Assembly (NCBI GenBank): GCA_044239865.1
Contig: JBIIAO010000005.1
Location: forward strand, 41,537 to 105,536
DNA length: 64,000 nt
Reading direction: 5' to 3'
Source of the DNA: Flavobacteriales bacterium
GTDB taxonomy: Bacteria > Bacteroidota > Bacteroidia > Flavobacteriales_D > Sanyastnellaceae
In this document: piece by piece, positions 15,955-55,839 of the stretch
Layout: every line of letters starts with the position of its first letter
How positions within the stretch are numbered: the first letter of the stretch is position 1
Translations under genes and position numbers: made by a program
The notes under the pieces: model-generated
The model's database searches: none
Seen by the model: the letters and a program-made list of their open reading frames with translations, nothing else
What the model was told of the DNA's origin: nothing

Positions 15955-15962
15955 TATATTTG
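15955..15962 (+). promoter_or_regulatory. Candidate -7 promoter box (TATATTTG) for the marR-yceI unit
   Basis: Exact TAnnTTTG match, 4 nt upstream of the GTG start at 15967. Confidence 0.4.
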
Positions 15963-15966
15963 CCCT

Positions 15967-16428: not shown

Positions 16429-16450
16429 ACAAAAAATAAAAATCAATCAA

Positions 16451-17062
16451 ATGAAAAAGGCAATTTTAGCATTAGTCGTGGCAATCGCTTCAGTAGCGGG
16501 AGTTCAAGCGCAATTAGCAGATGGTAAGTACATTTTAGACTTCAACAAGAGTTCAATCGTTTGGAGTGCAAAGAAGGTAACTGGTAGTGGACACACAGGA
16601 ACTGTGCGTGTTTCAAGCGGTGTTATCTATGTAAAAGGTAATGCGGGTATAACAGGAAAAGTGAAAATTGATATGAACGCTATGGTTATCACAGATATCT
16701 CAGATGCAGGAACAAATGCAAATTTTTTGAATCACTTAAAAGCAGATGATTTCTTCAACACTGTTGCTTTTCCAGATGCTATGTTTGAAGTGACAAGCGT
16801 TCAAGTTGCGAAAGGAAATAATGGTACAACGCACAATGTAACAGGCAACATGACAATCAAGGGAATTACTAAGTCGTTGTCATTCCCTGCGAAAATCACG
16901 GGTGGTGGAAATCAAGTATTTGTAGAGGGTAGTGTTGGTGTTGATCGCTCACAATTCGATGTGAGATACGGCTCTACCGCATTTTTCGACAATCTAGGAG
17001 ACAAGGCAATAGACAATATTTTCAACTTGAACATTAAGTTGGTAGGTGATTTGAAGAAATAA
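16451..17062 (+). CDS. YceI-family (polyisoprenoid-binding) periplasmic protein
   Basis: Signal peptide, then SSIVWSAKKVTGSGHTGTV... and HLKADDFFNTVAFPDAMF, which are YceI-like blocks. Confidence 0.82.
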   Translation: MKKAILALVVAIASVAGVQAQLADGKYILDFNKSSIVWSAKKVTGSGHTGTVRVSSGVIYVKGNAGITGKVKIDMNAMVITDISDAGTNANFLNHLKADDFFNTVAFPDAMFEVTSVQVAKGNNGTTHNVTGNMTIKGITKSLSFPAKITGGGNQVFVEGSVGVDRSQFDVRYGSTAFFDNLGDKAIDNIFNLNIKLVGDLKK

Positions 17063-35518: not shown

Positions 35519-36357
35519 AATTCGGGAAGTTAGAGAGCGTCGACCATCTTTCTTTTTCATTCGACGTTCCATCACAGGATTATTCCTTCCTACCGAATGA
35601 TCATTCGGGTAAGTTAGAGATCATTGTAGGCGGAACTGTTTGGGGCGTTCCGCAATGGAAGGGGACCCATTTTCCAGCGAAAGCCAAACCCTCAGAATTT
35701 CTTCATTACTATTCAAGGTTATTTCCCTGTATTGAATTCAATGGTTCACATTACCGGACACCGCCGGTCGCCCAAGTTGCGAAGTGGGTGGAGCAAGTCC
35801 CTAAAACTTTTTTATTCTGTCCGAAATTTCCACAGAGTATTTCACATTGGAGACAGTTTCAAAATTGCGAGCGCGAAACAGATTTGTTTATGGAAGCACT
35901 TTTTGCTTTCGGTAAGAATTTGGGAACGACATTCATTCAGCTCCCACCGCATTACAGTCCTGCAAAGGCAGAACCTCTTTTGCGTTATTTGGAAAAACTT
36001 CCGAGAGACGTTCGTTATTCAGTTGAAATGCGTCATCCCGATTGGTTCACAGGAAATGTGTTGGAGGAGTATGCCGAAGAATTAAAAAAGTTGAACGTTG
36101 GTTTAATCGTTTGCGACACCGCAGGAAGAAGAGATGCTGTTCACATCCGCTTGACGAGTGATGAACTCGTGATTCGTTTTGGTGGAAACAATCTTCACGC
36201 AAGCGACGACTTGCGAATGAATCAATGGATAAAGCAATTGAAAGCATGGGAAAAAGTTGGGTTGAAGAAATGTTATTTCTGGATTCATCAACCCGAAAGT
36301 TTACACACGGTTGAAACCATGCAATTGTTCAATACAATTATTTCAGATTACAAATAG
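35515..36357 (+). CDS. DUF72-family protein
   Basis: FLHYYSRLFPCIEFNGSHYRTP block and typical length. Confidence 0.78.
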   Translation: MKFGKLESVDHLSFSFDVPSQDYSFLPNDHSGKLEIIVGGTVWGVPQWKGTHFPAKAKPSEFLHYYSRLFPCIEFNGSHYRTPPVAQVAKWVEQVPKTFLFCPKFPQSISHWRQFQNCERETDLFMEALFAFGKNLGTTFIQLPPHYSPAKAEPLLRYLEKLPRDVRYSVEMRHPDWFTGNVLEEYAEELKKLNVGLIVCDTAGRRDAVHIRLTSDELVIRFGGNNLHASDDLRMNQWIKQLKAWEKVGLKKCYFWIHQPESLHTVETMQLFNTIISDYK

Positions 36358-37400
36358 ATACAACCGCCACAGCTGTCTTTAGAAGCGCCTGTAACTTCTG
36401 AGAGCGCTGTCGGTTGCTCCAAGAGTCTAAGCGCTCCTAATAGGGCGAAAATGAGCGCCTCTTTGTATTGAATGGTGTCATTGTCTGGAACAACTACCGC
36501 TAAATCTGTTTTTGCTTGAATCGATTCAATGAGGAAAGAATTGAAAGCTCCTCCGCCTGTCACTAAAACACTTCCTGTCCAGCCTTCAAAAATCTGTGCT
36601 ATTTGAACCGCCATGTGCTCTGTGCAGGTGGCTAACAAATCGCGAATGGTCAATTGAGATGAGCCGAGCAAAGGAAGGAAATGACTTTCGAACCATTCTT
36701 TTCCCAAAGACTTCGGAAGTTCTTGCGAGTAATAGGGGAGTGCATTTAATTTTTCAAGAAGTTCAACATTCATCACACCGCGTCTTGCCATTTCGCCGTT
36801 TGCATCGAACGGATGTCCGGTTTGTTCAGCCAATAAATTCAAGGCCATATTCGCCACACAAACGTCGAAGGCATTCAGGTCGCCCATGAGTGTGTATGAG
36901 ACATTCGCAATTCCGCCAATATTCAGACAAAAATCGTATTCACTAAATAACAAGCGGTCACCAATGGGGACCAATGGAGCGCCTTGACCACCGTGTGCTA
37001 CATCGGTGGTTCTGAAATCGCAAATGGTTTTAATTCCTGCGTTCGCAGCAATGTGCGCACCACTTCCAATTTGAACCGTAAGCGATTCGCCGGGCTGATG
37101 AAATATGGTATGTCCGTGCGATGCAATTGCATCGGCAGCCAAGTTTCTTTCCTCTAAAAAACGCTTGACTTGTTTTCCTGAATAAATTCCGAAGTCTGCA
37201 TTCAGTTGCGCCAATTCGAGCGCAGACATTTTGTGCGCTCTTCGAAAAATATCGCGCCATGAAGCGTCATAAACTATGGTCTCTGCAGCAACAATTTCGT
37301 ATTCCCATTTTCCTTCGTTGAAGGAAAGATCACACAACGCAATGTCTAGTCCATCGAGACTGGTTCCGCTCATGAGTCCAACAATTCGAAAGGTTTCCAT
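36348..37400 (-). CDS. anmK: Anhydro-N-acetylmuramic acid kinase
   Basis: GLMSGTSLDGLDIAL N-terminus and NIGGIANV blocks. I placed the start at the ATG at 37400 (METFRIVG). Confidence 0.9.
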   Translation of the reverse strand: METFRIVGLMSGTSLDGLDIALCDLSFNEGKWEYEIVAAETIVYDASWRDIFRRAHKMSALELAQLNADFGIYSGKQVKRFLEERNLAADAIASHGHTIFHQPGESLTVQIGSGAHIAANAGIKTICDFRTTDVAHGGQGAPLVPIGDRLLFSEYDFCLNIGGIANVSYTLMGDLNAFDVCVANMALNLLAEQTGHPFDANGEMARRGVMNVELLEKLNALPYYSQELPKSLGKEWFESHFLPLLGSSQLTIRDLLATCTEHMAVQIAQIFEGWTGSVLVTGGGAFNSFLIESIQAKTDLAVVVPDNDTIQYKEALIFALLGALRLLEQPTALSEVTGASKDSCGGCIYL

Positions 37401-37406
37401 AGGTTG

Positions 37407-37414
37407 CAAATATA
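37407..37414 (-). promoter_or_regulatory. Candidate -7 promoter box (TATATTTG) for anmK
   Basis: The minus strand reads TATATTTG, 6 nt upstream of the ATG at 37400. Confidence 0.4.
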
Positions 37415-37438
37415 AGAGGGCGGAATGAACCGCCCTCT
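37415..37438 (-). terminator. Hairpin terminator after the LTD-PLD gene
   Basis: Perfect 9-bp stem AGAGGGCGG / CCGCCCTCT with a 6-nt loop, followed on the minus strand by a T-rich TATATTT. Confidence 0.55.
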
Positions 37439-37460
37439 CAGTATCTCAATCAGAAGAATA

Positions 37461-40355
37461 TTATTTGATAATGATTGTCTTCGTCCAAAGGTTAGTGTCG
37501 TTTGAAACTTTACATACATAAGTTCCAACGGCCAACGAAGGCAATGAAATTTGATTCATTCCAGCGTTCAAATTTTCAGTGTGAACCAATTGTCCTTGTG
37601 CACTGTAAATATTCAAAATTGATTTTCCAGATTGAACAGGAACACCCACCCATAAGTTGTAAGATGCTGGGTTTGGATAAACACTCATGTCGTTGTTCGT
37701 CTCATCTTCAACACCAACCAAGCTCCATGTCGCCATGAACTCTTGAAGGTAAAGATTAGCAACGCGCGCATCGTGAACAACAACAGTGTTCTCGTCATTC
37801 GTGGTTTGTGCGGCACTGCTCCAGTTGTGACTTCCCGTAAGAACAGTTGGGTCTGAATCCAATGTGCTGTGATCGACAATGCAATACTTGTGGTGAAGGT
37901 CATATTGAATACCCTCATGCGAACGGATGTCTTGACCTGCGGCTTGCAAGTATGCAAATTCAGACGCGGGATCTGAAGTTTGTTCCATCATACCACGAAC
38001 CAACACCAAGAATAAATCATCTTCAGCTATGATAGCATCGGCAATATCTGCGCGTGTGAAAGCAAGAATGGCGTAATCTAAATTGGTGTCTGTCGTTTGC
38101 ATGGTCTTGATAATCGCACCGTTTGCATTGTCAGTTGGAGAGAAATAACTTTCAACTTTAATATCGTCTGGACCCATGACATATTGCAACGGAGTGTTGT
38201 TCGTTTTGCTTGCGCCAAATACGCCATTCGGATTTCCCGGTTGTGCACCAGAACCGCCCCACATTTCTTCGAATTCTAAACGATATCCGCGAGCAATACT
38301 TTGATCTTGGAAAATAATTATATTGTTGAAATCGGTAGACATGTTGTTGTCTGTCCAGTTGGTAGACCCTGTAAACACCCATGAATTCGCAGTTGAATCT
38401 GGATCAACAACAATAAATTTATTGTGCATGATACCTGTGCCAGAAGTATTAATTCTTTCAACAACTGGAATATTCGGATTCAAAAGAGACAGACCCAATT
38501 GAGCAGTAGAACCATCGGAAACAATTCTCACTTGCACACCAGCGTTGTATCTGTTGTTGATTGCATTAGCAATAGTTGCGTCGTCTGTGAAGTTGTAAAT
38601 TGCAATATCAACGGCTTGTTGAGCGCGAAGAATGTATGCCGCAATGGTATCGTTTGTTAAAGTGCCCAACGATATTGCGTTTTCGATAGTTGCATAACTG
38701 TTATCTACTTGACGCGTGAAATAAGTACGGATTTCTCCTGAACTTAAGCTTTTGGTTGCGTACGGACGAACAGTGCTTGTGCTAGAACCATCAACGTTTG
38801 AAGAGGTTACAGATGCGTAGTAAATTGTTCCAGGCTGTAAGCCAGAGATATTCACAACGTGATTCGTTACGCTCTCATTTACATAAACGGTTTGTCCTAA
38901 AGATGTGGTTAAACCGTAGTTCACTTCGCTGTCTCCAGTATTATTGGTTGCCCAATTAAGGTCGAAAGATGAAGTGGTGATGTTGGTTTGAGTAACAGCG
39001 CCAATGATTGCAACTCCCGGAGGAAGAATGAAATCATTTTCATCACGTGGTAATATTTGATAACCAGCATCGAAAGGAGCAGTAGCGTCGAATTGAGAAA
39101 CAATTCCAACAAGCGTAATAGCGCTTGCAGGTAGATTCGTTCCAACCAAAACGCTTCCAGCACGAATGTATATAACACCCGATTGTCCGTTAGCCAAATA
39201 GCTGTATGTAGAGTTTGCTGAGATGACAGATCCTGCCAAATCGAAAACTACATTATCCACGGTTACTAATTCACCTTCGTAAGCTTCAGCAATCATGTTT
39301 GGAGTAACCAATTGATTTGTAGGAAGCGTATTGTTTGAAGAGTTAACAGTCACAGCTGTTAGGGTTGGTCCTATTTCGAGTAGTCCGTTGAATTCGGTTA
39401 TTACGCCTGAAACGGTAACGAGGTCACCACGTAATGGAGCGGCAGGCCAAGAAGCCCAATCAACTCCAGGATAAATAGCAATACCCGCCTGGCTGTCTTG
39501 AATGTAACGCACAGAGCTACCCATTTCAGTGCCGTTAGTAACGATACCAGTTACGCTTACAGCTGCTCCAACTCCTGCAATACGAGCGGCCGATATGGTG
39601 CCTCCAGCAATTGGAGTTCCTATGCAGTCACAATTGTTATCGTAAGTGTCACCGGTTGTAGTTGCAATGTTATCATTACAAGCATCACCAGGAAATGCAC
39701 AAGAACCATTGTCGGTAATGGCAAGCGCGTTATAGTTACACGCTGTGTTGTCCATGCAGCCAGCAATTGTTCCGCTGTTCGAAGCACCTGGCGTTGGCAA
39801 TTGAGCAACGTAGGCAGCAGTATTGAATGCTGCTCCACCATCAGGAAGGCGTGATGAAGAATTGTTCAAGGTTGGCGTTGCAGCTGTTTCGTCAGCCTGC
39901 GGTTGGCCAGGAGTAAGAACAGTTAATAGATTGGTAGCGTCGGCATCTGCTGTTCCGTATACCAAAGCATCTACTAATCCAGTTGCGCTTACAGCAGTAC
40001 CATTGGGCCAAGCTGCAACCGTAGCGGTATATATTGCAATGCCGTCTGCACCGTTTTGCAATGTGTTTCCTGTGAATGTGATATTCACATTAGCAACCCC
40101 TGCGTTTCCGATAACGAAATAACCTGAAGCAGGAATGACGTTTCCAGATAGGTCAACTGCTTTGTAAGAAGTGGCAGCTGCTCCATTGAACCAAACCATA
40201 ACCATTCCGTTCAAGGATTGTCCTGGAGCACCATACAATTCAATGAATTCGGCAGCGTCGGTTCCAACTTGATCGGCATCAACTTCGTTAATAACAACCT
40301 GTGCTTGTGAAGCTCCGAATAGAAGCGCTAACAAGAGTGTGTAGATGTATTTCAT
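37461..40355 (-). CDS. Secreted LTD / OB-like / FN3 / two-HKD phospholipase-D-superfamily protein with T9SS type A sorting domain (candidate extracellular nuclease or phosphodiesterase)
   Basis: Signal peptide, then an LTD (VVINEVDADQVGTDAAEFIELYG). An FN3-like segment follows (LQPGTIYYASVTSS). There are two HKD motifs (MHNKFIVVD...GSTNWT and HHKYCIVDH...GSHNWS). The C-terminus is VYPNPASYNL...TIIIK. Confidence 0.82.
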   Translation of the reverse strand: MKYIYTLLLALLFGASQAQVVINEVDADQVGTDAAEFIELYGAPGQSLNGMVMVWFNGAAATSYKAVDLSGNVIPASGYFVIGNAGVANVNITFTGNTLQNGADGIAIYTATVAAWPNGTAVSATGLVDALVYGTADADATNLLTVLTPGQPQADETAATPTLNNSSSRLPDGGAAFNTAAYVAQLPTPGASNSGTIAGCMDNTACNYNALAITDNGSCAFPGDACNDNIATTTGDTYDNNCDCIGTPIAGGTISAARIAGVGAAVSVTGIVTNGTEMGSSVRYIQDSQAGIAIYPGVDWASWPAAPLRGDLVTVSGVITEFNGLLEIGPTLTAVTVNSSNNTLPTNQLVTPNMIAEAYEGELVTVDNVVFDLAGSVISANSTYSYLANGQSGVIYIRAGSVLVGTNLPASAITLVGIVSQFDATAPFDAGYQILPRDENDFILPPGVAIIGAVTQTNITTSSFDLNWATNNTGDSEVNYGLTTSLGQTVYVNESVTNHVVNISGLQPGTIYYASVTSSNVDGSSTSTVRPYATKSLSSGEIRTYFTRQVDNSYATIENAISLGTLTNDTIAAYILRAQQAVDIAIYNFTDDATIANAINNRYNAGVQVRIVSDGSTAQLGLSLLNPNIPVVERINTSGTGIMHNKFIVVDPDSTANSWVFTGSTNWTDNNMSTDFNNIIIFQDQSIARGYRLEFEEMWGGSGAQPGNPNGVFGASKTNNTPLQYVMGPDDIKVESYFSPTDNANGAIIKTMQTTDTNLDYAILAFTRADIADAIIAEDDLFLVLVRGMMEQTSDPASEFAYLQAAGQDIRSHEGIQYDLHHKYCIVDHSTLDSDPTVLTGSHNWSSAAQTTNDENTVVVHDARVANLYLQEFMATWSLVGVEDETNNDMSVYPNPASYNLWVGVPVQSGKSILNIYSAQGQLVHTENLNAGMNQISLPSLAVGTYVCKVSNDTNLWTKTIIIK

Positions 40356-40397
40356 TTTTCTTTCTATTGTTCTTTTTAATTTTTCTAGAATGCCTGA

Positions 40398-43274
40398 TTA
40401 GAATGTGGCCGATAAAGATACGTTGAACCATCTTCCTTGACCAAAGAAAACTCCGGCTGAAGAGGAATCAAAGTTAAAAGCCTTGTTGTTGTACAATGCA
40501 TTTAAGTCGTTGTTTCTTGCATCTGTAATAAATACACTATTCAGTACATTGAAAACACTTCCTCTCAAATCCCAACGTACTCCATTAATCTCTTTGCCAT
40601 AACCAGCATGAAATTCCAACGTGCCATAGGCAGGGATTCTCCAAGACTCTCTTCCAGCATTGTCACCATTTAATTCAAAGGGGTTCATATCAGAAAAATA
40701 GCGATCGAACCAAGTATATCTGGTCTTCGCATAAGCCCCATTTTTCCATTCATAACGAAGCATAGCACCTAATTGTGTTTGAGCAGCATCACTCACGTGA
40801 ACACCATTCGCATCGTAAGTCACACTGTACTGCTCACTATCAGGATTTCCGGGATCTGAGTATACCGGATTTCCATTGTCATCAAAAATGAAAATTGTAT
40901 CGGAAGAAGTCCATATCCAATCACCAAATGAAGCCAAACCTTCGAAGGTGATACGGTCATTTATTTTATAAGCAAAATCGAGTTCAGCGCCTTGGTGACG
41001 TGCATTCATTCCACGAATATTTACGGTGATGTTCGAAGTTGGATCTTGTGGGTCAGGAACCGAGAGTCCATACGGGAATGGCTTGTTTTTCCAGGTGGTG
41101 TGATACAGATTTACGTTGAATGAAAACTTCTTCGATTTGTAGTTCCAACCGTTTTCAAAGCTCGAAATAATTTCATTTTCGATTGTTTTAAATCGTTCAT
41201 TTGCATTCGTATAGATTTGACTAAAAAGGGGAGCCTTATTCAAGTAACCGGCATTAACGAAAACAGCCAAATTCCGAGAAATATTATATTTCACACCTGA
41301 TTTTAATGTCACCGTTGGCCTATAATACCAACCAGTACTTTGAAATTTTGAACCAGCCATGTTGCTTGTTAAAGTTTGGCCACGTACAATTGTTGTGTCT
41401 GAAACAAGTGCAATTGCATTGTTAACATATGAAAATCCTACAGGGATTTCTACTCCATTAATTTCATATACTTTAGGTCGGAAATAATCAACGCGCTTGT
41501 AACCAGTAATTGCTGCAGAAACACTTAAAAAGGCAGAAATTTTATCATCTTGGTATTCGACTTGTCGAAACAATCCCCCCCAACGTATAAAGGCGTCGTT
41601 ATTATAGTCTATCGTATCTCCTTCTCGTTTGACTAAATTCGGATCGTTGTAGTTGATTGAAGTACGAGCGATAATATAATCTGAGCCCATAAGGTCAATA
41701 ATTTTTCTATAGTGCGACCCTTTATATGATCTGAGGTCAAAACCCTCTGCGTAACTCCACTTGTCATTGATTTTTTTATTAAAAGTACAAAGTACACCGT
41801 ACCATGAGTGTTCGTTCATACTAGCCTTAATGTAATTGGAAACAGCATAGCGTTCAGTAGGACTCACGAGCGTATTTATGTTGTAATCAGGTCCTGAAAA
41901 CAAAGGTGGTTTTGCACCTGCATTCGCGTCGTAGAAGGCTTGCATATTTACAGTTCCATCGGATAAATAATCGTTGGCTGTAATGTTGTTGTTCCAACGT
42001 GTTCCGCCACCTCTTCCGAAAGAAGCGTAGGCTACTGTGCTAATGAATGTTTTTTCATCAATGGTCCAAACATCTTTAAACGAGAATTGAGGCTTGTGAT
42101 AAAAATTCTTGCGGCCATTGAATTGCTCTTCAGCTTGAATATTTGTGCGTTGTCCGTTTACAAAATCATAGCGAGTTAAATTACCAACATCAGGGTTGTA
42201 ATTGATACCACCGTTAAAAATCGATACTTCAGTATTTGGATTCGGATTGTATGTTGAAGGGGCTCCAACGGCAGAGGCCGTTTCGGCACTATAGAGTGCA
42301 ATGGCTTCAGATCTTAAACGCTGACCGTGTTCTTGAGGAGCGCCCAATCCGTATAAACTCAAATGGTGATTACCTGCAATTTTTTCAATTTTTCCGTAAT
42401 AGAAAAATCCTCTGGTGAATGTTCCATCCACCCATCCACTCCCTGTTTTGAAAGATGTGGCCATCGAAAATGCCCACCCTTTTTTAGATTTTCCAGAGTT
42501 GTAGGCGAATGAAGTTCTTGAGAAAGCACCGTATGCGTATTCTTGACGCAGACGAACACTTCTCTTCGCATCGATTCCGCGCGTAATAATATTCATAGTA
42601 CCACCAACAGCTGGAATAACAAGCTTTGAAGCCCCAAGTCCACGCTGAATTTGTGTGGTTTGCGTAGCAAGATCTAATCCGAACCAGTTGCTCCAATAGA
42701 CGGTTCCGTTTTCCATATCGTTCACTGGAACGCCGTCCAACATTACAGCAACGTTATTTCCAGAAAAGCCGCGAATGGTTACACGTGCGTCACCATCTCC
42801 ACCACCTGCGCGAGTTGCGTATGTCCCGGGTGTGGTGTTTGCGAGCGTGGCCATTTCTCTTCCCGCTAATTCTTCTTCAATACGTTTCAATCCGATGTTT
42901 GAGAAAGCTACAGGAACAGTTCTTCCAACCGCTAAATCGGATGAAATGACCACTTCTTTTTGAAGGGTTTGAATGAGGTCGAAATCGATTGAATATTCTT
43001 TTTTCGTGATGGAAATATTCTTCTTCACCTCTTCGTATCCAACTGCGGTAATAATGAATTCATATTCACCGTATGGAAGTTTAATGTTGAATTTTCCTGA
43101 TGGATCAACTGATATTCCTTTCTCCTTATTCGCCCACAAGACGAAAGCGGAAGGAAGAGTTTCTCCTGAAAGTCCATCACGAACAGTACCACTTAAAATT
43201 CCTTCTTGAGCACTGGAAATAAGACTCAATGAAAGAAGTGGAAGAAGTAAAAAGAATGATTTTAAAATTCTCAT
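40398..43274 (-). CDS. TonB-dependent receptor with N-terminal carboxypeptidase-regulatory-like domain
   Basis: Signal peptide, GILSGTVRDGLSGETLPSAFV, a plug block (VAVMLDGVPVNDMENG), a long barrel and a terminal Phe. I placed the start at the ATG at 43274 (MRILKSFF). Confidence 0.9.
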   Translation of the reverse strand: MRILKSFFLLLPLLSLSLISSAQEGILSGTVRDGLSGETLPSAFVLWANKEKGISVDPSGKFNIKLPYGEYEFIITAVGYEEVKKNISITKKEYSIDFDLIQTLQKEVVISSDLAVGRTVPVAFSNIGLKRIEEELAGREMATLANTTPGTYATRAGGGDGDARVTIRGFSGNNVAVMLDGVPVNDMENGTVYWSNWFGLDLATQTTQIQRGLGASKLVIPAVGGTMNIITRGIDAKRSVRLRQEYAYGAFSRTSFAYNSGKSKKGWAFSMATSFKTGSGWVDGTFTRGFFYYGKIEKIAGNHHLSLYGLGAPQEHGQRLRSEAIALYSAETASAVGAPSTYNPNPNTEVSIFNGGINYNPDVGNLTRYDFVNGQRTNIQAEEQFNGRKNFYHKPQFSFKDVWTIDEKTFISTVAYASFGRGGGTRWNNNITANDYLSDGTVNMQAFYDANAGAKPPLFSGPDYNINTLVSPTERYAVSNYIKASMNEHSWYGVLCTFNKKINDKWSYAEGFDLRSYKGSHYRKIIDLMGSDYIIARTSINYNDPNLVKREGDTIDYNNDAFIRWGGLFRQVEYQDDKISAFLSVSAAITGYKRVDYFRPKVYEINGVEIPVGFSYVNNAIALVSDTTIVRGQTLTSNMAGSKFQSTGWYYRPTVTLKSGVKYNISRNLAVFVNAGYLNKAPLFSQIYTNANERFKTIENEIISSFENGWNYKSKKFSFNVNLYHTTWKNKPFPYGLSVPDPQDPTSNITVNIRGMNARHQGAELDFAYKINDRITFEGLASFGDWIWTSSDTIFIFDDNGNPVYSDPGNPDSEQYSVTYDANGVHVSDAAQTQLGAMLRYEWKNGAYAKTRYTWFDRYFSDMNPFELNGDNAGRESWRIPAYGTLEFHAGYGKEINGVRWDLRGSVFNVLNSVFITDARNNDLNALYNNKAFNFDSSSAGVFFGQGRWFNVSLSATF

Positions 43275-43306
43275 TAGATTGAAGCTAAGGTTAAACAATT
43301 GCCGAT

Positions 43307-43340
43307 AAAAAAGGGGCTTTACCGAAGTGAGCCCCTTTTT
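43307..43340 (-). terminator. Rho-independent terminator after the small LTD gene
   Basis: Stem AAAAAGGGGCT / AGCCCCTTTTT, flanked by A and T runs. Confidence 0.6.
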
Positions 43341-43358
43341 ATTTGAATAAAGAAAATA

Positions 43359-44282
43359 TTATTTGATGAAGTTTTGACGATTGATGGTTCCGTTTTCGGA
43401 AATCACTTCTACCGTGTAAGCTCCTTTTGATAGATTCGAAGTTTGAATGCGAGTCATGTGATCTAAGATTGTTCCGTTCGCGAATACAACACGACCCGTG
43501 TTGTCATAGATACGAATTGAACGAATAATGTTTGGAGAAACGACGTTCAAAATATCTCCTGTTACTGGATTAGGATAAATTGAAATTGAACGTTCAACAT
43601 TTTCAGTAACGCTTACATTGCAATCGCATGTGTGTGCACCTAGGAAAGTGAATGTGTTAGCTGGCAAGGTGTCGTACTGAGCAAAAACATCGAACGAAGA
43701 TGGATTCATTGTAATTCCAGAAGTTACGGTAGACTTTCTGATTTGAGTGTGGTCTGTAGTTGCGTAGAGCGTTGCTCCTGTTTCGTCAGTTCCATATGCA
43801 CTCCATCCTCCAAAGCCAGTTCCTTCTCCAATTCTGCCGTAAAGGTCAATCAACGTTTGACCGTTGTTTGAAACAATTGCAATAGCGTCGTTTCCGTTGA
43901 AATACATTGGCCAAACACCGTTGTCATATGTTGGGTTAATAAATACATCTGCAGCTGCAGCTAAATCATCCCATACCGGTGCCTCGAGGCCCGTGCCTGC
44001 CTGATCTTGCTTGTCAAGAACAACTACAATAACATCGTTTGCTGCAATTGAATAACCGTCTAGCATAGCAATGCTGCCATATGACGTACTTCCGTTTGAA
44101 AAACGAACCAAGCCTATTCCGTTAAGATTAACAGTATTTGCGGTAGGGTTATAAATTTCAACCGCTTTGTTGTTGCTCCAACCTTCAATAACTTCAGAGA
44201 TGAAGATTTGATTGCATTGCGCTTGAGCCGTAAACAAGGCTAAAAAAGAAAAAGAGAGAAGTAAAAGTTTTTTCATTACCAT
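43359..44282 (-). CDS. Secreted LTD protein with T9SS type A sorting domain
   Basis: Signal peptide (MVMKKLLLLSFSFLALFTAQAQ), an LTD (QIFISEVIEGWSNNKAVEIYNPTANTVNLNG), and a C-terminal SIYPNPVTGDILNVV...FIK. The track TTG start at 44297 lies inside the -7 box, so I used the first ATG, at 44282. Confidence 0.8.
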   Translation of the reverse strand: MVMKKLLLLSFSFLALFTAQAQCNQIFISEVIEGWSNNKAVEIYNPTANTVNLNGIGLVRFSNGSTSYGSIAMLDGYSIAANDVIVVVLDKQDQAGTGLEAPVWDDLAAAADVFINPTYDNGVWPMYFNGNDAIAIVSNNGQTLIDLYGRIGEGTGFGGWSAYGTDETGATLYATTDHTQIRKSTVTSGITMNPSSFDVFAQYDTLPANTFTFLGAHTCDCNVSVTENVERSISIYPNPVTGDILNVVSPNIIRSIRIYDNTGRVVFANGTILDHMTRIQTSNLSKGAYTVEVISENGTINRQNFIK

Positions 44283-44294
44283 TTTATTTTGAGG

Positions 44295-44302
44295 CAAATA
44301 TA
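44295..44302 (-). promoter_or_regulatory. Candidate -7 promoter box (TATATTTG) for the small LTD gene
   Basis: The minus strand reads TATATTTG, 12 nt upstream of the ATG at 44282. Confidence 0.4.
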
Positions 44303-44511
44303 TTCTACAATTGGTTATCCTAGTCCGTCCAATGTGAAATGAATGTTAAAAGTGTCATGCACCTTTTTATGGAGTTTCTTGGTCTTTATTTTACGAAAGC
44401 TATTTACGAACGTTATCACCTGAACAATTTTCCTTTTCTGCAAGCGGAAAAGGGCATTGTTTGAGCGGTTATTTAGTAAATTGCACCTTAATAGTACTGA
44501 AAAATAAAACG

Positions 44512-47500
44512 ATGCGTTTCTTTATTCGCCTTTTTGCAATTGCAACAATCTTTTTATTGGCCTCTTCCGCCAATGCCAATCACGTCTTAGGTGGCAATCT
44601 CACTTGGGATTGCCTTGGGGGTAATCAGTATCAGATTACAATGAGAATCTACAAGGATTGTTTCGGCGCGAGCCCTGCTTTGTCTGCTGAGAACTTATTT
44701 GTTTTTCCAACAGGATGTACTCTGAATCCACAAAATATTACGCTGAATCTGATTAGTACGACTGAGATTTCGAATTTGTGCGCGAGTGAATTGCCAAGTA
44801 GCTCATGCGTAGGTGGCTTGTCTCCCGGCACGCAACTATTGACTTATCAAGCTACGGTAACACTCACCCCGGGATGCACGTGGGAAGTCATTTGGAATGA
44901 GGGAGATTGGAATTACTTCAACAACATTAATTACAGCACACTTCCAGACGCCTACTTAGATGCGCTAATCAACACAAATTACTGCGCAGATTCTCCAGTG
45001 ATTACCTCTATTCAAGTGCCATACGTCTGCAGAAACAATGGTACATTTGTTCATACGCCAACCGTAACTTTACCAGCTGGTGTTACCGCTTCATATACGC
45101 TTTCAACGCCACAAACAACAGGAGCTTCATTAGATGTGGGAATCAATGTTCCGGGATACGTTAATACCTTGGGAGCAACAGTAAACGCAACTACCGGTGC
45201 TGTTTCAATAAATACAAATGGAATTGCGGTTGGAAACTATATCGTTACTGTTCAAATTACCCTAACACAGGGAGGCAATGCAGTAGGCACGTTGTATGAG
45301 AACATGGTTTTTGTAATTCGCGATTGTGCAATTACGCCTACAACCTTTGCCAATCCAGAAATTCAGAGCATTAATATCCCCGCGAATCTTGCTGGTCCGG
45401 CAACCATAAATGCCTGCTCGGGTGATAGTGTATGCTTTACAGTTTCGGCTTCGAACACAAACCTCTATCGGGCAATAACAATTACATCGACTTGGAGCGC
45501 AGGTTTAAACGCCGGCACTCCCGTTTTCGCTCAAAGCACGGTAAATTACAATCCGGCTTCTGCCACATTCTGTTTTACAGCTCAACCCTCAATGGTTGGA
45601 GTAGCACAAACAATAAATTTTAATGCAATAGATAATGCCTGTACCGCTCCGCAATCAGATGCTCAAGTGGTTACAGTTAACGTTTTTCCGAGTGTAACTC
45701 TGAATCCAACTACTGCCACAATTTGCAATAACGCTGCGGTAACTGTCACTGCTTCGGGCGGTACAACATACACATGGTCTGTTTTAAGCGGAGACGCAAC
45801 TCCTGGATTCGATGGCAACGCAGCAGTTCAGGTTTTAGAAAGTATTTCAGGAAATACCGTAATTATGGTTTCCATGCCGGGTGTGCCTGTGCAGTGCAAT
45901 GCTACAGATACATTAACCGTTACTGTTCCTGATTTTACCCTTCAACCTTTGACAACCCAGAGTATGTGTGTGGGCGGAACGGTTACCCCGCTAACCTTCA
46001 CATTGGTTGGCGTTACTGGAACACCTACTTACCAGTGGTATAGCAATGCAACAAACTCAAATACTGGAGGAACGGCAATAGCAGGAGCAACAGCTATTAC
46101 TTATACTCCTTCGAGTGCCACAGCTGGAACAACCTATTACTATTGTTTAGTGACTCTAACCTCGGCTAGCTGCCCGGACATTACAACCAATACTGCAGAA
46201 GTTATTGTTGTTGCAGATCCAACTATTACTACTCAACCTCTAGCTACTCAGAATATTTGTATTGGAGGAACTGGTACATTGAGTGTTATCTATTCAAACG
46301 GATTAGGAAATGCAACTTACCAATGGTATTCAAATACAACGAATAGCAATACTGGGGGTTCGATCATTGCAGGCGCAACGAGCTCTACCTATACCACCCC
46401 TGTTTTAAACACAGCGGGCACAAGAAATTACTATTGCATAGTTACTTTGAGTGGCTCGGGATGTGGCACTGCAATATCTGCAGTTGGTCAAGTCATTGTT
46501 GGAGTGGACCCCACAATTTCAACCCAACCTTTAACGACTCAATCTATTTGCGTAAGCGGAACACCTGCAGCCATTTCAGTGGCTTATATAAACGGATCTG
46601 GAACGCCAGCTTATCAATGGTATTCGAACACCACAACGAGCACTACAACAGGAACAGCAATTCCGGGAGCGACTTCGGCGACTTATACGTTCTCTCAAAT
46701 GAACACGCCCGGTACTTTCTACTATTACTGTGTAATAACGTTAAGCGGATCCGGATGTAATGTCATTACTTCAGCTACTTCACAAGTGATAGTTGTTGCC
46801 GATGCCACAATTGCAACGCAACCACAAGCCTCTCAAACCGTTTGTTTGAATGGTATTCCGAATGCACTAACGGTTACAGTTAATAATGGATTAGGAACCA
46901 TCTCCTACCAATGGTATTGCACCACAGCGAACAATAATTTCTCTGGATCAGCTTTAGCTGGTGCAACCTCACCGACATTTATTCCTCCGACTAACGTTGT
47001 GGGAACTCGTTATTACTACTGCAGGGTAAACGTGGCAAGTTTGACTTGCGGAGTTATTTTCGTTGTTACTTCAGGAACAGGAGCCATAATCGTTGTGCCA
47101 CTTCCGACAGTAAACACACAGCCAACCCCAACTCAAAGCATTTGTATTGGAGGAACTCCGAATGCCCTTACAATGGGTTACACCGGAGGAACGGGTACTG
47201 CGAGTTATCAGTGGTATAGCAATGCGACAAACAGCAATACGGGCGGCACTGCTATAGCAGGTGCAACCACCAATTCGTACACTCCACCAGGAGCAACAAT
47301 TGGAACTTCTTACTATTATGGTGTTGTTACTTTAACAGGTTTAGGATGCGGAAGTGTTGCGAGCAATGTGGCTACTGTCAATGTTATTGCCGACCCATTA
47401 ATAACCACGCAGCCAACTGCATTACAAACTCTTTGCGTAGGTGGAATTCCTTCCTCCCTCACAACGGCATATTCAGGTGGAACGGGAACAGCTTCTTATC

Positions 47501-50500
47501 AGTGGTTTAGCAATACGACCAATTCTACAACAGGAGGAACATTGATTGCCGGGGCAACAACTGCAACATATACGCCTGCAGCTATTAACACTTCAGGAAA
47601 TTATTATTACTACGGAGCTGTTACACTTTCAGGTTCAGGTTGCGGAACCATTACCTCATCTACTTCAAATATTGTTGTCGTTGACGATCCTTCTTTTTCT
47701 GTTCAACCGCTTTCGACTCAAACCGTTTGTTTAAGTGGAACAACAACAGCCTTGTCCGTGACTTCAATTGGAGGAACTGGCACAATGTCTTACCAATGGT
47801 TTTCAAACGCTACCAATGCCACGACTGGAGGAACTGCAATTGCTGGAGCAACGGCTACAACATACACTCCGCCAAGCGCAGCACTCGGAACAATTTATTA
47901 TTATTGCGAAGTGTCGGCTACCGGAAGCGGTTGCGGAACAGCTGCCTCTGCTACAGCTGCAGTAGTCGTTGTATCACCTCCAACCGTAAGCACGCAGCCT
48001 ACTGTTACCCAAACCATCTGCGACGGTGGAACAGCAACAGCCCTAAGCGTTGCATACACCGGTGGAACCGGAACGCCTTCATACCAATGGTATTCGAATG
48101 CTACAAATAGCACAATTGGAGGAACAAGCATTGCGGGAGCAACAGCTTCAACCTACACCCCAACCGGAGTTGCAGCAGGGACATCTTATTACTATTGCAT
48201 CATCACGTTATCAGGATCTGCATGCGGAACAGCCACTTCCAACACAGCCACTGTTATTGCTGTAGCAGACCCAACCATCACCACCCAACCAACTGCTACG
48301 CAAACTATTTGTGCAGGTGGAACACCAAGTGCATTGACCATCGCATACTCCAACGGAACGGGCACTGCTAGTTATCAGTGGTATAGCAATACGACTTCAG
48401 CAACAACAGGTGGAACTCTAATAGCTGGGGCAACTGCAGCGAGTTATTCTCCTCCTGTTTTGAATACAGCGGGTAGTTTTTATTATTACGGCATTGCCAC
48501 TTTAAGTGGAAGTGGTTGCGGCGCTGCGACATCTGCAATTGCACTGGTAACAGTAATTGCAGACCCAATTGTATCAACTCAACCAATAATTACTCAAACA
48601 CTTTGCGCAGGTGGAATTCCAACACCACTGACCGTAGCTTCTACCGGTGGAACCGGAACGCCATCATACCAATGGTATTCGAATGCTGCAAATAGCACCA
48701 CAGGCGGAACATTAATTGCAGGAGCTACCGCAGTTTCTTATTCTCCGGTAACCACTGCTGTTGGAACAATTTATTACTATGGAATTATTACGTTAAGCGG
48801 AAGTGGTTGCGTTTCACCGGCTTCTTCGACTGGAGCAGTAATCGTAGTATCACCTCCAACCGTAAGCACTCAGCCTACTGTTACTCAAACCATCTGCGAC
48901 GGTGGAACAGCAGCAGCCCTCAGTGTTGCATACACCGGTGGAACCGGAACGCCTTCATACCAATGGTATTCGAATGCTACAAATAGCACAACTGGAGGAA
49001 CAAGCATTGCAGGAGCAACAGCTTCAACCTACACCCCAACCGGACTTGCAGCAGGAACATCTTATTACTATTGCATCATCACGTTATCAGGATCTGCATG
49101 TGGAACAGCCACTTCCAATACAGCCACTGTTATTGCTGTAGCAGACCCAACCATCACCACCCAACCAACTGCTACGCAAACTATTTGTGCAGGTGGAACA
49201 CCAAGTGCATTGACCCTAGCTTATTCAAACGGAACAGGTACACCGAGTTACCAGTGGTATAGCAATACGACTTCAGCAACAACAGGAGGAACTCTAATAG
49301 CAGGGGCAACTGCAGCGAGTTATTCTCCTCCTGTTTTGAATACAGCGGGTAGTTTTTATTATTACGGCATTGCCACTTTAAGTGGAAGTGGTTGCGGCGC
49401 TGCGACATCTGCTTCTGCAGAAGTTATTGTAGTGGCTGATCCAACCGTCACAACGCAGCCTTTGTCAACTCAGACGGTTTGTTCAGGGGGTACATTAGCT
49501 CTTTTATCCCTTGTGGCTTCGGGGGGAACAGGCACTACCACCTACCAATGGTTCTCGAATACTGCAAACAGTAATACAGGTGGAACACTTATCGCAGGAG
49601 AGACAAACGCTTCTTACACGCCGATAGCCACCACAGTTGGGACTACTTATTATTATGGTGTTGCTTCTCTAAGTGGCTCAGGTTGCGGAACAGCTGCCTC
49701 TGCTACAGCTGCAGTAATCGTAGTATCACCTCCAACCGTAAGCACTCAGCCTACTGTTACTCAAACCATCTGCGACGGTGGAACAGCAGCAGCCCTCAGT
49801 GTTGCATACACCGGTGGAACCGGAACGCCTTCATACCAATGGTATTCGAATGCTACAAATAGCACAACTGGAGGAACAAGCATTGCAGGAGCAACAGCTT
49901 CAACCTACACCCCAACCGGACTTGCAGCAGGAACATCTTATTACTATTGCATCATCACGTTATCAGGATCTGCATGTGGAACAGCCACTTCCAATACAGC
50001 CACTGTTATTGCTGTAGCAGACCCAACCATCACCACCCAACCAACTGCTACGCAAACTATTTGTGCAGGTGGAACACCAAGTGCATTGACCCTAGCTTAT
50101 TCAAACGGAACAGGTACACCGAGTTACCAGTGGTATAGCAATACGACTTCAGCAACAACAGGAGGAACTCTAATAGCAGGGGCAACTGCAGCGAGTTATT
50201 CTCCTCCTGTTTTGAATACAGCGGGTAGTTTTTATTATTACGGCATTGCCACTTTAAGTGGAAGTGGTTGCGGCGCTGCGACATCTGCTTCTGCAGAAGT
50301 TATTGTAGTTGCTGACCCAACAATTTCAGTTCAACCTTTGGCAACACAGACCAATTGTCAGAATGGAATTTCAACACCGCTTACTGTTACTGTAACCGGA
50401 GGTGTTGGAACAACAACTTACCAATGGTACACCAACATTGTCAACTCTACTGTAGGCGGTGTAGCTTCTGGAAACGCAGCGACACTTACCCCATTGACAG

Positions 50501-53500
50501 CTGTGGTCGGAACGGCATATGTTTATTGCATAATCAACACTTCAGGTGCAGGCTGTTCAGCGGCTACATCAGCAACTGCCGAAGTTATTGTAGCGCCAAT
50601 TCCTTCCATAACAACTCAACCACAAGCAACACAAACAGTTTGTCAAAACGGTACCACTTCGACTTTATCCTTTGCTTATTCGAACGGATCTGGGGCTACA
50701 ACATACCAATGGTATTCGAACCCAACCAACAGTGCAACGGGAGGAACTGCCGTTGCTGGTGAGACCAATGCAACCTTCACCCCAAGCGCCACTGCTATTG
50801 GAACGACTTATTATTACTGCGTATCCACGCTTAGTTTAGGTGGAAGTGGTTGCGGAACAGTAACCACACAAACAGCAGCGGTTATAGTAGTTGGTCCTCC
50901 AACTATATCAACCCAACCAACCGCCACGCAAACCATTTGTGTGGGCGGAACACCAAGTGCTTTATCGATCGCATACACCGGTGGAACAGGCACCGCCTCG
51001 TATCAATGGTACAGCAACACATCGAACGCTACAACAGGCGGTGCGGCAATTGTAGGTGCTACAACGGCTTCATTTACACCTCCGACATTAAACACTTCAG
51101 CAAGTTATTTCTACTATGGAACTGTTACGTTGAATGGTTCCGGTTGCGGATCCGCTACGTCAGCTTCTTCTGAGGTGGTTGTGGTTGTTGATCCAACTAT
51201 TTCAGTTCAACCGCTAACCACTCAAACCGTTTGTCAGAATGGCATTCCAACGCAGATAACTGTAACAGTTACAGGTGGAACAGGAACTACAACTTATCAA
51301 TGGTACACGACGATCTTAAACAATAACGTGGGCGGAGTAGCTTCAGGAAATGCAGCTACACTTACGCCGATTACAGCCGTAGTTGGAACGGGATATGTTT
51401 ATTGTGTTGTGAATACAAGTGGTGCAGGATGCACGGCAGTTGCTTCAACGACTTCTGCTGTTATCGTTGTTCCTCTTCCAACTATATCTTCTCAGCCCAT
51501 AGCGTCGCAAACCATTTGTCAAAATGGAGTGGCAACGCCATTAACATTTACCTACACCAATGGAACCGGAACTCCAACTTATCAATGGTACGTTAACGCT
51601 ACCGCAAGTACAACTGGAGGATCGATTTTAGCTGGGGAAACAAACGTTTCTTTTGCTCCTCCAACAAGTGCTCTCGGATCGCTCTATTATTATTGCGTAG
51701 CTACTATAAGCGGAAATGGATGCGGAACAGTTACGACTCAATCATCAGAGATAAATGTTGTTGGACTTCCAACAATTACAGCTCAGCCTTTAGCCACGCA
51801 GACAATCTGCTCGGGAGGATCTCCAAGTTCTTTAACATTGACATTCTCAGGAGGTACGGGTGCTGCTACTTACCAATGGTATAGCAACAGCACCAATGCC
51901 ACAACTGGTGGGGCGCTAATTCCTGGCGGAACTGCCGCTCAGTACAATATTCCGAACTTGAATACTTCAGGAAGTTATTACTATTATGGAATAATAACAT
52001 TGGGCGGGGTAGGATGTGGTTCAATAACAACAAGTGCATCAGAGGTTATTGTTAACCCCGATCCTACTGTTGGAACTCAACCTTTGACAACACAGAGCTT
52101 GTGCGCAACAGGAACACCGACTAATTTGCAAGTAAGCTTTAACAATGGCGCAGGTGTCGCTTCTTACCAGTGGTATTCCAGCACAACAAATTCAACTGCA
52201 AGTGGAATTCTAATTCCTGCCGCAACAAATGCGGTTTACACACCAAGTTCAACAACTCCAGGGACACAATATTACTATTGTACTATTTCATTATCGGGCT
52301 CTGGTTGCGCAGATGCGACAAGCAGTGTGGGTGAGGTGATTGTGTTTGCACAACCTACTTTTTCAGTTCAACCGAATCCGAATGAAACGGTTTGTTTGGG
52401 AGGAACTCCAACAACATTCTCACCAACGGTTGCGGGTGGAACAGGCGCTGCCAACTACCAATGGTATTCCAATTCTACAAATACAAACACGGGTGGAACC
52501 GCAGTTGCAGGAGAAACCAATCTTACGTACACACCTCCGGCAACGACAGTTGGTTCAACGTATTATTATTTGACAGCAACCTTCGCAGGCACAAGTTGCG
52601 GAACTGCATCTTCAAGCACTTCACAAATTATTGTTGTAGCAGACCCAACCGTTTCAACCCAACCACTTGCAACAGATTCGATGTGCGTTGGAGGAATACC
52701 AAATACGCTGAACGTTGCCGCGACCGGAGGTACGGGTACACCGACATATCAATGGTATAGCAACACTACAAATTCAAATGTTGGTGGAACAGTCATAGGG
52801 GCAGCAGTTGCTAGCACCTACAACCCAACTGCTTCTTCTACCGCAGGAACTCAATTTTTCTATGCGCAAATCACGCTTTCAGGTTCTGGTTGCGATATAT
52901 TAAGTTCTTCCGTAAGTGAAATCGTAAACGTGGCAGACCCAATCATTTCAACTCAGCCGGCCGCAGCGCAGGATGTGTGTTTGAACTCCCCGTCAACTGC
53001 AATAAGTGCAGCTGTAAGTGGTGGTTTAGGAACAGTGAGTTATGCGTGGTATAGCAATTCAACGCAAACTCTTCCAGGAACTATTCTTCCCGGAGCGAAC
53101 ACCAATACTGTTACCCCTGCCAATACTCCTGCTGGAATTTCTTACTTCTACATGGTAGCAACACTTTCAGGAAATGGATGTAACGCCGCCACTTCGAATT
53201 TTTCTCAAGTAACCGTTCACGCGTTACCTACTGTGACAGCTACTCCGCTTGATAATTCAATTTGTTTCGGAACAACAACGGATATAGTTGCGAGTGGAGC
53301 GACTTCTTATGTATGGACTGCAGCTCCTACCATTACTTCACCAGCGAATGTTGCTACTGTATCAGTCGCGCCGATTGGAAGTGTTACATATACTGTTCAA
53401 GGTACAGATGCATTTGGATGTGTGAATACGGCAACAGCAACCGTTGTTGCAGCAACACAACTAAACGTTCAAGAGAATATCACCACAAATATTTGTTATC

Positions 53501-55314: not shown

Positions 55315-55839
55315 ATGAGCGATAGCGAATTGGTTTCAGAATGTCTCAAAGGAAAGTCGTCCGCACAAAGGACACTCTTTCAATTGCACTCTGGAAAAAT
55401 GTTCGCGGTGAGTCTACGTTACATGGGTAGCACCATGGAAGCCGAAGAGGTGTTGCAAGAAAGCTTCATTAAAGTTTTTGAAAAGCTTAATCAATGGAAG
55501 GGCGACGGTCCTCTAGGGGGTTGGATTAGAACCATTGTTGTGAATACCGCGCTAACCCGCATTAAGAACAACAAGAAGTTTCGACTCGACAAAAACATTG
55601 ATGACGCAGTATCACTTTCCGACAACGGAGAAGATCAATTGGAAGCCTTGCAGGCAGCTGATTTGATGAAGTTAATTGCTCAAATGCCCGATGGGTACAA
55701 GACAGTATTTAACTTGTTCGTTGTGGAAGGATATGGACACAAAGAAATTGCCGACCTAATGGGGATTTCTGAAAGCACTTCAAAAACACAATTTTTAAAA
55801 GGAAAAAACTGGTTAGTCAAAAGAATAAATGAGCAATAA
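55315..55839 (+). CDS. ECF-type sigma-70 family RNA polymerase sigma factor
   Basis: 174 aa. Region 2 (AEEVLQESFIKVF...WIRTIVVNTAL) and a region 4 HTH (GYGHKEIADLMGISESTSKTQFLKGK). Confidence 0.9.
   Translation: MSDSELVSECLKGKSSAQRTLFQLHSGKMFAVSLRYMGSTMEAEEVLQESFIKVFEKLNQWKGDGPLGGWIRTIVVNTALTRIKNNKKFRLDKNIDDAVSLSDNGEDQLEALQAADLMKLIAQMPDGYKTVFNLFVVEGYGHKEIADLMGISESTSKTQFLKGKNWLVKRINEQ

Follow-up and report, generated by a model that had tools for sequence, protein, structure and literature searches.

What does a TonB-dependent receptor take up when its gene lies between the genes of two secreted lamin-tail-domain (LTD) proteins, one of which also carries a phospholipase D (PLD)-superfamily module with two HKD motifs? 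The question is raised by a stretch of 64,000 nucleotides (nt) from a Flavobacteriales genome (contig JBIIAO010000005.1, positions 41,537 to 105,536; hereafter the window), in which open reading frame (ORF) analysis places three minus-strand genes, hereafter the trio, at 37461-44282. One encodes a protein of 307 amino acids (aa), the next the receptor, and the last a multidomain protein with a type IX secretion system (T9SS) sorting domain:

43359..44282, minus strand: gene of the 307-aa secreted LTD protein (ORF and Pfam/NCBIfam domains)
40398..43274, minus strand: gene of the 958-aa TonB-dependent receptor (ORF and Pfam CarbopepD_reg_2 and Plug)
37461..40355, minus strand: gene of the 964-aa LTD/Cys knot/tandem-OB/FN3/two-HKD/T9SS protein, hereafter the PLD gene (ORF and domain searches)

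The answer that we favour, with a probability of roughly 0.65, is that the cassette is an outer-membrane system for the use of extracellular nucleic acid, in which the polymer would be captured, cut and imported (scavenging). An initial annotation, made from the letters of the window, had proposed such a capture, degrade and import pathway, and the proposal gains support here from conserved synteny, the swapping of nuclease types, a DUF5689 module, nucleotidase neighbours and the relatives of the HKD module. Lakes, oceans and sediments contain a large reservoir of phosphorus, nitrogen and carbon in the form of extracellular DNA, and Bacteroidota are leading consumers of polymers in these environments. 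To our knowledge, DNA systems of Bacteroidota have been characterised only in gut Bacteroides (2025) and in a pathogen of birds (2021), and the cassette appears to be their free-living counterpart.

Both of these systems provide a frame for the analysis. Within the ddbABCDEF locus of Bacteroides thetaiotaomicron, three nucleases, DdbC and DdbD are required for the depletion of exogenous DNA (Sharan et al., PNAS 2025; PMC12478041). DdbD, a DUF5689 protein, was modelled as the partner that binds the substrate for DdbC; it is similar to the p202 HIN domain, and the structural relatives reported for it are OB folds of HIN-200 proteins, RPA and YgiW (PMC12478041). In Riemerella anatipestifer, the operon formed by RA0C_RS04915 (receptor) and RA0C_RS04920 (DUF5689 plus DUF5017) is essential for natural transformation (PMC8459023). 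Our literature searches found DUF5689 only in the ddb and Riemerella studies, and searches for LTD together with TonB or Flavobacteria, and for DNA as a phosphorus source of Flavobacteria, returned no description of the present variant.

The strongest evidence comes from the conservation of the cassette. One genome per species was scanned for relatives of the receptor, which gave at least 582 stretches; the best 80, with receptor identities of 40-96%, were taken with their flanks (L and P numbers below are our labels for loci and proteins). All of these best 80 loci come from metagenome-assembled genomes (MAGs) or single-cell genomes of uncultured lineages, the MAGs being labelled as Flavobacteriales, Crocinitomicaceae, Cryomorphaceae, Saprospiraceae, Chitinophagales, Marinilabiliales or Bacteroidales. 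A homologue of the 307-aa LTD protein is encoded upstream of the receptor in 72 of the 75 loci with enough sequence, and the slot downstream of the receptor holds a T9SS cargo protein in every one of the 66 loci in which enough sequence is available. The synteny search that the initial annotation had recommended thus finds the gene order kept across several Bacteroidota orders. Chance is excluded, because the arrangement is kept across about 80 loci; the flanking genes past the trio vary clade by clade. The proteins that occupy the downstream slot are of four kinds:

37 of 66 loci: OB-FN3-two-HKD protein, the type of the window
26 of 66 loci (L039 included): Endonuclease I (PF04231) protein
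2 of 66 loci (L049, L057): stand-alone tandem-OB protein of about 296 aa with a T9SS sorting domain and without a nuclease
1 of 66 loci (L073): both nuclease types in tandem

In about 40% of loci the PLD module is replaced by Endonuclease I, whose family consists of endonucleases that cut DNA or RNA non-specifically. Proteins of the two types share one slot beside orthologous receptors, and in L073 both are present. The Endonuclease I proteins of the slot come in three domain orders, in two of which the same OB module stands before or after the nuclease. L075, which is not among the 66 counted loci, provides a third case of an OB protein that stands alone; the minimal slot proteins lie at 12889-13779 in L049, 6197-7090 in L057 and 3125-4021 in L075, and the LTD gene, too, is missing from L049 and L057. 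In nine Crocinitomicaceae-like loci (L036, at 15021-16650, L041, L054, L055, L061, L063, L074, L077 and L079), the nuclease gene is followed by a split 5'-nucleotidase, of which one half is a lipoprotein with the C-terminal domain and the other a separate Metallophos protein with a twin-arginine (Tat) signal. Once oligonucleotides had been imported, an enzyme of this kind would be expected to act on them next, in the periplasm. Nucleic acid is the substrate that the exchange of nuclease types in the slot, these nucleotidase neighbours, the OB module and the nuclease relatives of the HKD halves together point to.

The last two of these arguments concern the 964-aa protein of the window, which is composed as follows:

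39771..40355, minus strand: signal peptide and N-terminal LTD, aa 1-195 (Pfam LTD 1.5e-4, sub-threshold)
39618..39770, minus strand: Cys-rich knot, aa 196-246 (six Cys, residues 200-244)
39012..39617, minus strand: tandem-OB module, aa 247-448, predicted to bind DNA and DdbD-like (AlphaFold2 and DUF5689 membership)
38736..39011, minus strand: fibronectin type III (FN3) spacer domain, aa 449-540 (Pfam fn3 2.2e-5, 25.0 bits, at the cut-off)
37698..38735, minus strand: two-HKD PLD-superfamily module, aa 541-886, predicted nucleic-acid phosphodiesterase (PLDc_2 6e-35)
37464..37682, minus strand: T9SS type A sorting domain, aa 892-964 (Por_Secre_tail 1.1e-9; TIGR04183 1.1e-10)

The Cys-rich knot, the FN3 domain, the two HKD motifs (both intact) and the sorting domain are as initially annotated. 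What had been described as two OB-like segments does have the OB fold, but AlphaFold2 and hhalign show one tandem-OB module of DUF5689. The model of the module (predicted local distance difference test, pLDDT, 93.3) contains two OB barrels, and its best PDB folds are the HIN-200 domains bound to double-stranded DNA (MNDA, IFI16, p204, p202), RPA and YgiW. In the window sequence alone, Pfam detects nothing in this region below an E-value of 0.01. PF18942 is recorded for relatives that are 99% identical to the 964-aa protein; in L036, L056, L060 and L073, the orthologous modules score above the Pfam cut-off for it, and a profile of the OB module aligns with RefSeq-annotated DUF5689 proteins at an hhalign probability of 91%. 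By profile comparison and predicted fold, the module is assigned to DUF5689. The same profile gave no hhalign match with the Phocaeicola DUF5017 protein or the Persicobacter 233-aa neighbour, both of which are introduced below. A DUF5689 (tandem-OB) protein is accordingly encoded directly after the receptor, here fused to a nuclease.

The HKD motifs of the C-terminal module read HNKFIVVD at residues 644-651 (H644/K646/D651), followed by GSTN, and HHKYCIVD at residues 821-828 (H821/K823/D828), followed by GSHN; the motif positions are invariant across 34 homologues. In a PDB sequence search, the first half (residues 564-703) matched Zucchini/MitoPLD at 9e-11 and the second (residues 734-878) matched Nuc (1BYR) at 1e-6; NucT scored 4e-4, and neither HKD half matched a lipid enzyme. 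The NCBIfam models that match the module are NucT, DrmC and DpdK only, with no lipid-synthase model among them; at 63 bits against an equivalog cut-off of 297, the NucT match falls short of orthology. Because each half aligns to one Nuc/Zucchini-type chain, the module is, on these alignments, a fused Nuc-like pseudo-dimer, modelled by AlphaFold2 with a pLDDT of 92.6. Single-chain, two-HKD proteins can be nucleases, as the exonucleases PLD3 and PLD4 illustrate. A fold search was rejected as a test of the substrate, all two-HKD proteins being matched, lipid enzymes and nucleases together. At the domain level, the locus encodes a secreted nuclease, in that the Nuc-like two-HKD module belongs to a protein that has both a signal peptide and a T9SS sorting domain.

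The 958-aa protein was correctly named a TonB-dependent receptor: behind a signal peptide it has a CarboxypepD_reg domain (about aa 27-100), a TonB-box-like KEVVISS (aa 105-111), a plug and a large barrel. The barrel is too divergent for Pfam to detect in the window protein, PF00593 being recorded for close relatives, and a PDB sequence search found no relative of the receptor past residue 271. The receptor has relatives in more than 7,000 sequence clusters. No SusC/RagA model of NCBIfam matches it, the sole match being a weak one to MxcH, and domain searches find no SusD-family gene beside it, its neighbours being the LTD and PLD genes. A bridge to Phocaeicola was built with a tblastn search of PLSDB, a homologue search from the Phocaeicola match, and cluster and context look-ups. 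Over its full length, the receptor shares 31% identity (E 2e-128) with P0299, whose 90% cluster includes a Phocaeicola vulgatus protein. In gut metagenomes, P0294, a near-identical relative of P0299 of the same length, stands at the head of a receptor-DUF5017-EEP nuclease locus. An Aureibacter receptor, 24% identical to that of the window (E 5e-41), heads a locus in which two DUF5689 proteins, an endonuclease and two EEP proteins come next. For comparison, the DdbC types of B. thetaiotaomicron (Bt) and P. vulgatus (Pv) are about 25% identical to each other (PMC12478041).

The third partner, the 307-aa protein, consists of a signal peptide, a lamin-tail domain, a short Cys linker and a C-terminal T9SS type A sorting domain, the LTD and the sorting domain being as initially described (Pfam LTD 3.6e-14, 53.5 bits against a cut-off of 34.3; Por_Secre_tail 1.3e-10 in Pfam; TIGR04183 9e-11). 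Its N-terminal part resembles the LTD of ExeM (NCBIfam, 1.3e-20), residues 8-169 aligning to model positions 4-143; the full ExeM/NucH plan is absent, with 73 bits against a cut-off of 1300 and no EEP domain. Both the 307-aa and the 964-aa protein have signal peptides of the signal peptidase I (SPI) type (…AQAQ|) and T9SS type A sorting domains, and both carry the marks of T9SS type A cargo (TIGR04183/PF18962 and an N-terminal signal peptide). The organism has a T9SS, because other T9SS cargo, of the CHU_C type, is encoded nearby in the window. Divergent from the LTD gene is a gene (44461-55257, plus strand) whose 3598-aa product is of T9SS type B (CHU_C) and has six or more Ig_7 repeats; it is followed by an ECF sigma factor (55315-55839, plus strand) and a small PKD-CHU_C protein (55829-56842, plus strand).

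Taken together, the trio is a T9SS/LTD/PLD variant of a kind described between 2021 and 2025 and is not unprecedented. The initial annotation had stated that no such system was characterised; this does not hold for the core of receptor, DUF5689 and nuclease (PMC12478041, PMC8459023), and stands for the LTD partner, T9SS delivery and PLD-type nuclease. As in ddb, a CarboxypepD_reg-type receptor, a DUF5689 tandem-OB protein and secreted nucleases are encoded together, following a logic like that of a polysaccharide utilization locus (PUL); the OB module of the window has the HIN-like fold reported for DdbD, and the Phocaeicola locus whose receptor is 31% identical to that of the window looks like the Pv type. 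The differences are that the partners in the window are delivered by T9SS sorting domains, whereas the ddb surface proteins are lipoproteins (signal peptidase II, SPII); that DUF5689 is fused to the nuclease, whereas it is a separate gene in ddb; that the nuclease is of the two-HKD PLD type, which is unmentioned for ddb loci in the text of that paper (PMC12478041); that the LTD protein is an almost constant extra partner in window-type loci; and that the hosts are free-living freshwater and marine Bacteroidota. The Riemerella operon, likewise from Flavobacteriales, has a receptor annotated only as 'carboxypeptidase regulatory-like domain' followed by a DUF5689 protein, a minimal form that L049, L057 and L075 share. 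RA0C_RS04920 has no nuclease domain and its phenotype is transformation, whereas in the window DUF5689 is fused to a nuclease and an LTD gene precedes the receptor; these two systems are compared by annotation. Common to the window, ddb and Riemerella is a core that comprises a CarboxypepD_reg receptor, a DUF5689 module and in most cases a nuclease. Relative to both published systems, the novelties are T9SS delivery, the fusion of DUF5689 to the nuclease, the PLD-superfamily nuclease, its exchange for Endonuclease I and the near-constant LTD partner.

More distant comparisons concern single components or the general plan. The HxK(x)4D motifs are those of Nuc (Salmonella, 1BYR), NucT (Helicobacter, 6EHI), Zucchini/MitoPLD and PLD3/PLD4; unlike the single-HKD proteins Nuc, NucT and Zucchini, the window module is a single-chain tandem inside a 964-aa multidomain T9SS protein, and its substrate is a predicted one. 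With ExeM/NucH the locus shares a secreted modular plan of LTD, OB-type binding domain and nuclease, but the catalytic domain is of the PLD type (Endonuclease I in relatives) and not EEP, the LTD is mostly a separate protein in window-type loci, and the genes are tied to a TonB-dependent receptor. With the SusC/SusD type of PUL it shares surface binding proteins, a surface hydrolase and a TonB-dependent importer encoded together, but the receptor is not SusC/RagA, there is no SusD gene, the predicted substrate is nucleic acid and the cargo is that of T9SS. The initial description of the locus as a PUL without a SusD is therefore right as to the missing gene, and less so as to the missing function, the DUF5689 module being the proposed SusD-like binding partner in ddb.

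From these parts a mechanism can be proposed. The LTD and 964-aa proteins, whose signals are recognizable, would be exported by Sec and then by T9SS and would come to lie at or near the cell surface, either attached or released. There, the tandem-OB DUF5689 module is predicted from its fold and family to bind DNA or RNA, and the Nuc-like two-HKD module, judged by its motifs and relatives, would cut the bound polymer. It is probable that the OB module docks onto the receptor, as was proposed for DdbD on DdbC, and cleavage would then occur at the mouth of the transporter. The receptor would import the oligonucleotides into the periplasm with TonB energy, where nucleotidases, such as those encoded beside nine related loci and not in the window, would free nucleosides and phosphate. 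The small LTD protein is a near-universal accessory and most likely serves, much as SusE/F do, as an abundant binding protein on the surface.

Several observations weigh against this reading. It is built from sequence and predicted structures, with all relatives in the best 80 loci uncultured. Foldseek matches the HKD module to PLD1/2, PssA and PLD3/4 alike. Eleven slot proteins of the Endonuclease I type have no detectable OB module; these (L024, L028, L039, L041, L047, L048, L055, L062, L066, L069 and L071) have instead an N-terminal region of about 180 aa, without OB/DUF5689 similarity, followed by an Ig-like domain, and this region may be a different binding module. Domain searches found no nucleotidase, nucleoside transporter or regulator adjoining the trio in the window. 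T9SS type A cargo can be released instead of anchored. The kinship of the receptor to DdbC and RA0C_RS04915 is indirect, running through the Phocaeicola and Aureibacter intermediates. On plasmid pPP1 of Persicobacter psychrovividus (L082, 7926-14546), a receptor 32% identical to that of the window is followed by no nuclease or OB gene, and the association with nucleases is thus not universal among distant receptor relatives; downstream of this receptor are a 233-aa protein of no assigned family and two leucine-rich-repeat proteins. Finally, DNA is a poor sole source of carbon, nitrogen or phosphorus for B. thetaiotaomicron (PMC12478041), and 'nutrient' may be too simple a term.

Among the alternatives, natural transformation has a precedent, since the only experimentally characterised Flavobacteriales pair of CarboxypepD_reg receptor and DUF5689 protein is essential for that process (PMC8459023) and tonBA is needed for it in R. 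anatipestifer as well (PMC8383284). The OB/DUF5689 module would capture DNA, the receptor would hand it on to the periplasm for ComEC-dependent import and the nuclease would do no more than trim or nick it, and the minimal loci L049, L057 and L075, with a receptor and a stand-alone OB protein without nuclease, fit such a route. Yet in 64 of the 66 loci the slot encodes a nuclease domain of non-specific type, fused to OB in at least 52 of these 64, which would tend to destroy transforming DNA, and the exported 5'-nucleotidase halves of nine loci suggest breakdown. Furthermore, comEC, dprA and comF are absent from the window, whereas in Riemerella comEC (RA0C_RS04895) and recA (RA0C_RS04870) lie within ten gene numbers of RA0C_RS04915, a protein to which the window receptor is linked only indirectly. 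We consider transformation a rather unlikely main function on this evidence; it could coexist with scavenging, and such a coexistence of DNA use and transformation has been discussed by the ddb authors.

A different substrate is suggested by the JGI annotation, 'phosphatidylserine/phosphatidylglycerophosphate/cardiolipin synthase-like enzyme', and by Foldseek scores for PLD1/2, a bacterial PLD (7e0m) and PssA that are like those for PLD3/4: the HKD module might be a phospholipase or another phosphodiesterase, acting on teichoic-acid-like or capsular material or on phospholipid head groups, and the receptor would import a phosphate ester. That the best sequence matches are to nucleases only, that the module is fused to a tandem OB of nucleic-acid type, that Endonuclease I fills the same slot in 26 loci and accompanies the PLD type in L073, and that nucleotidase genes adjoin nine loci make this improbable. 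Even harder to sustain is a nuclease that serves surface or biofilm roles only (remodelling of extracellular DNA in the matrix, escape from DNA traps, competition) beside a receptor of unrelated substrate and merely historical linkage. A homologue of DdbF was indeed first described as a DNase needed for the bile-dependent biofilm of B. thetaiotaomicron (PMC8851478), but the LTD-receptor-slot order persists down to 40% receptor identity and across orders while the flanks change completely, the slot gene follows the receptor gene at a short gap without a terminator, and more distant receptors are also tied to nucleases.

The scavenging reading would, if true, supply a metagenome marker for DNA foraging (or competence), a role for bacterial lamin-tail domains and for many proteins annotated as 'cardiolipin synthase-like' or 'hypothetical', and an example of one transporter core that recruits interchangeable nuclease modules. 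Uncultured freshwater and marine Bacteroidota carry the cassette widely, which makes it relevant to the turnover of dissolved DNA. A bolder version, which we offer tentatively and think rather doubtful as a whole, is that the LTD protein, receptor and OB-nuclease form one outer-membrane machine in which T9SS-anchored LTD and tandem-OB modules replace the SusD lid, making a third architectural class of TonB-dependent transporter complex; it would give abundant freshwater and marine Bacteroidota their pilus-independent DNA route for both food and transformation, with the bacterial lamin-tail domain as a dedicated surface receptor for DNA.

Returning to the 964-aa protein, the LTD assigned to its N-terminal part by the initial annotation is, taken alone, below the Pfam cut-off (22.6 bits against 34.3), while homologues pass the cut-off and carry PF00932. 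This LTD shares 54-59% identity with the LTD repeats found in EEP-domain proteins of Acidobacteriota; P0181, P0185 and P0187 are very large Acidobacteriota proteins with tandem LTD repeats and EEP-type nuclease domains. The N-terminal LTD and knot occur only at loci with at least 60% receptor identity and are absent even from a 70% locus (L003), and the knot is present in one or two copies in close relatives and in none of the distant ones (L005, L006, L008 and L009 exemplify the variation of LTD and knot, which in the window occupy 39618-40298, minus strand). LTD and knot are thus an add-on specific to the close clade, outside which the slot protein starts with the OB module and is 680-760 residues long. 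The FN3 domain is kept in the OB-FN3-HKD relatives. The sorting domain (37464-37682) matches PDB chain 8glk_D, deposited as 'Endonuclease I', with an E-value of 0.002.

As regards gene calls, the mechanical ORF list starts two of the three ORFs at an upstream TTG, which lengthens them to 312 and 966 aa; the sizes of 307, 958 and 964 aa used here are those of independent gene calls on contigs encoding an identical 964-aa protein. The DNA around the genes contains the following candidate signals, and one neighbouring gene:

44295..44302, minus strand: putative Bacteroidota-type -7 promoter box TATATTTG, intergenic, 13 nt before the LTD start codon
43307..43340, minus strand: terminator-like hairpin GGGGC...GCCCC followed by a T-run, in the gap from the LTD gene to the receptor gene (read from the sequence)
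40356..40397, minus strand: 42-nt A-rich spacer without hairpin, between the receptor and PLD genes
37416..37437, minus strand: terminator-like hairpin GAGGGCGG...CCGCCCTC closing the unit, after the PLD gene (read from the sequence)
36348-37400, minus strand: anmK (anhydro-MurNAc kinase), directly downstream of the PLD gene

The LTD gene had been credited with a -7 box and a terminator of its own, and both can be located. The box TATATTTG at 44295-44302 is a candidate promoter by its match to TAnnTTTG, of which the minus strand has only 14 copies in the 64-kb window. The hairpin with its T-run, at 43340-43307 in the direction of transcription, is probably a leaky terminator, and may, as a matter of speculation, set a high ratio of LTD protein to receptor. 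The gap between receptor and PLD genes is, as first described, 42 A-rich nt, and the two genes would be co-transcribed. It had also been said to be without a promoter motif; a further match to TAnnTTTG, TAACTTTG at 40469-40476 (minus strand), could act as an internal promoter, since it falls inside the receptor gene, in its 3' end, about 115 nt ahead of the PLD start. An Rfam scan of 36000-45000 found no riboswitch and no other RNA family.

When the other loci were searched for hairpins, a loose rule proved too permissive, with 38 of 53 loci positive after the LTD gene against 30 of 73 in the control position after the receptor gene. Under a strict rule, 13 of 73 loci have a hairpin between LTD gene and receptor gene, and none of 73 has one after the receptor gene. 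Hairpins at the LTD-receptor junction of other loci take the same position with unrelated stem sequences. The window's own hairpin at 43307-43340 has an imperfect stem and fails the strict rule.

Domain searches found no competence or nucleotide-salvage genes adjoining the trio in the window, its neighbours being housekeeping genes. RadA/Sms (56896-58245, plus strand), RNase R (60810-62963, minus strand) and Mfd (5556-8912, minus strand) are likewise housekeeping genes, and in other loci they are not linked to the trio. In Riemerella, transformation is affected by some of the genes for cell-wall recycling. The gene anmK was considered as a member of the unit and rejected: it follows the terminator-like hairpin, is preceded by its own TATATTTG at 37407-37414, and lies downstream of the trio only in close relatives.

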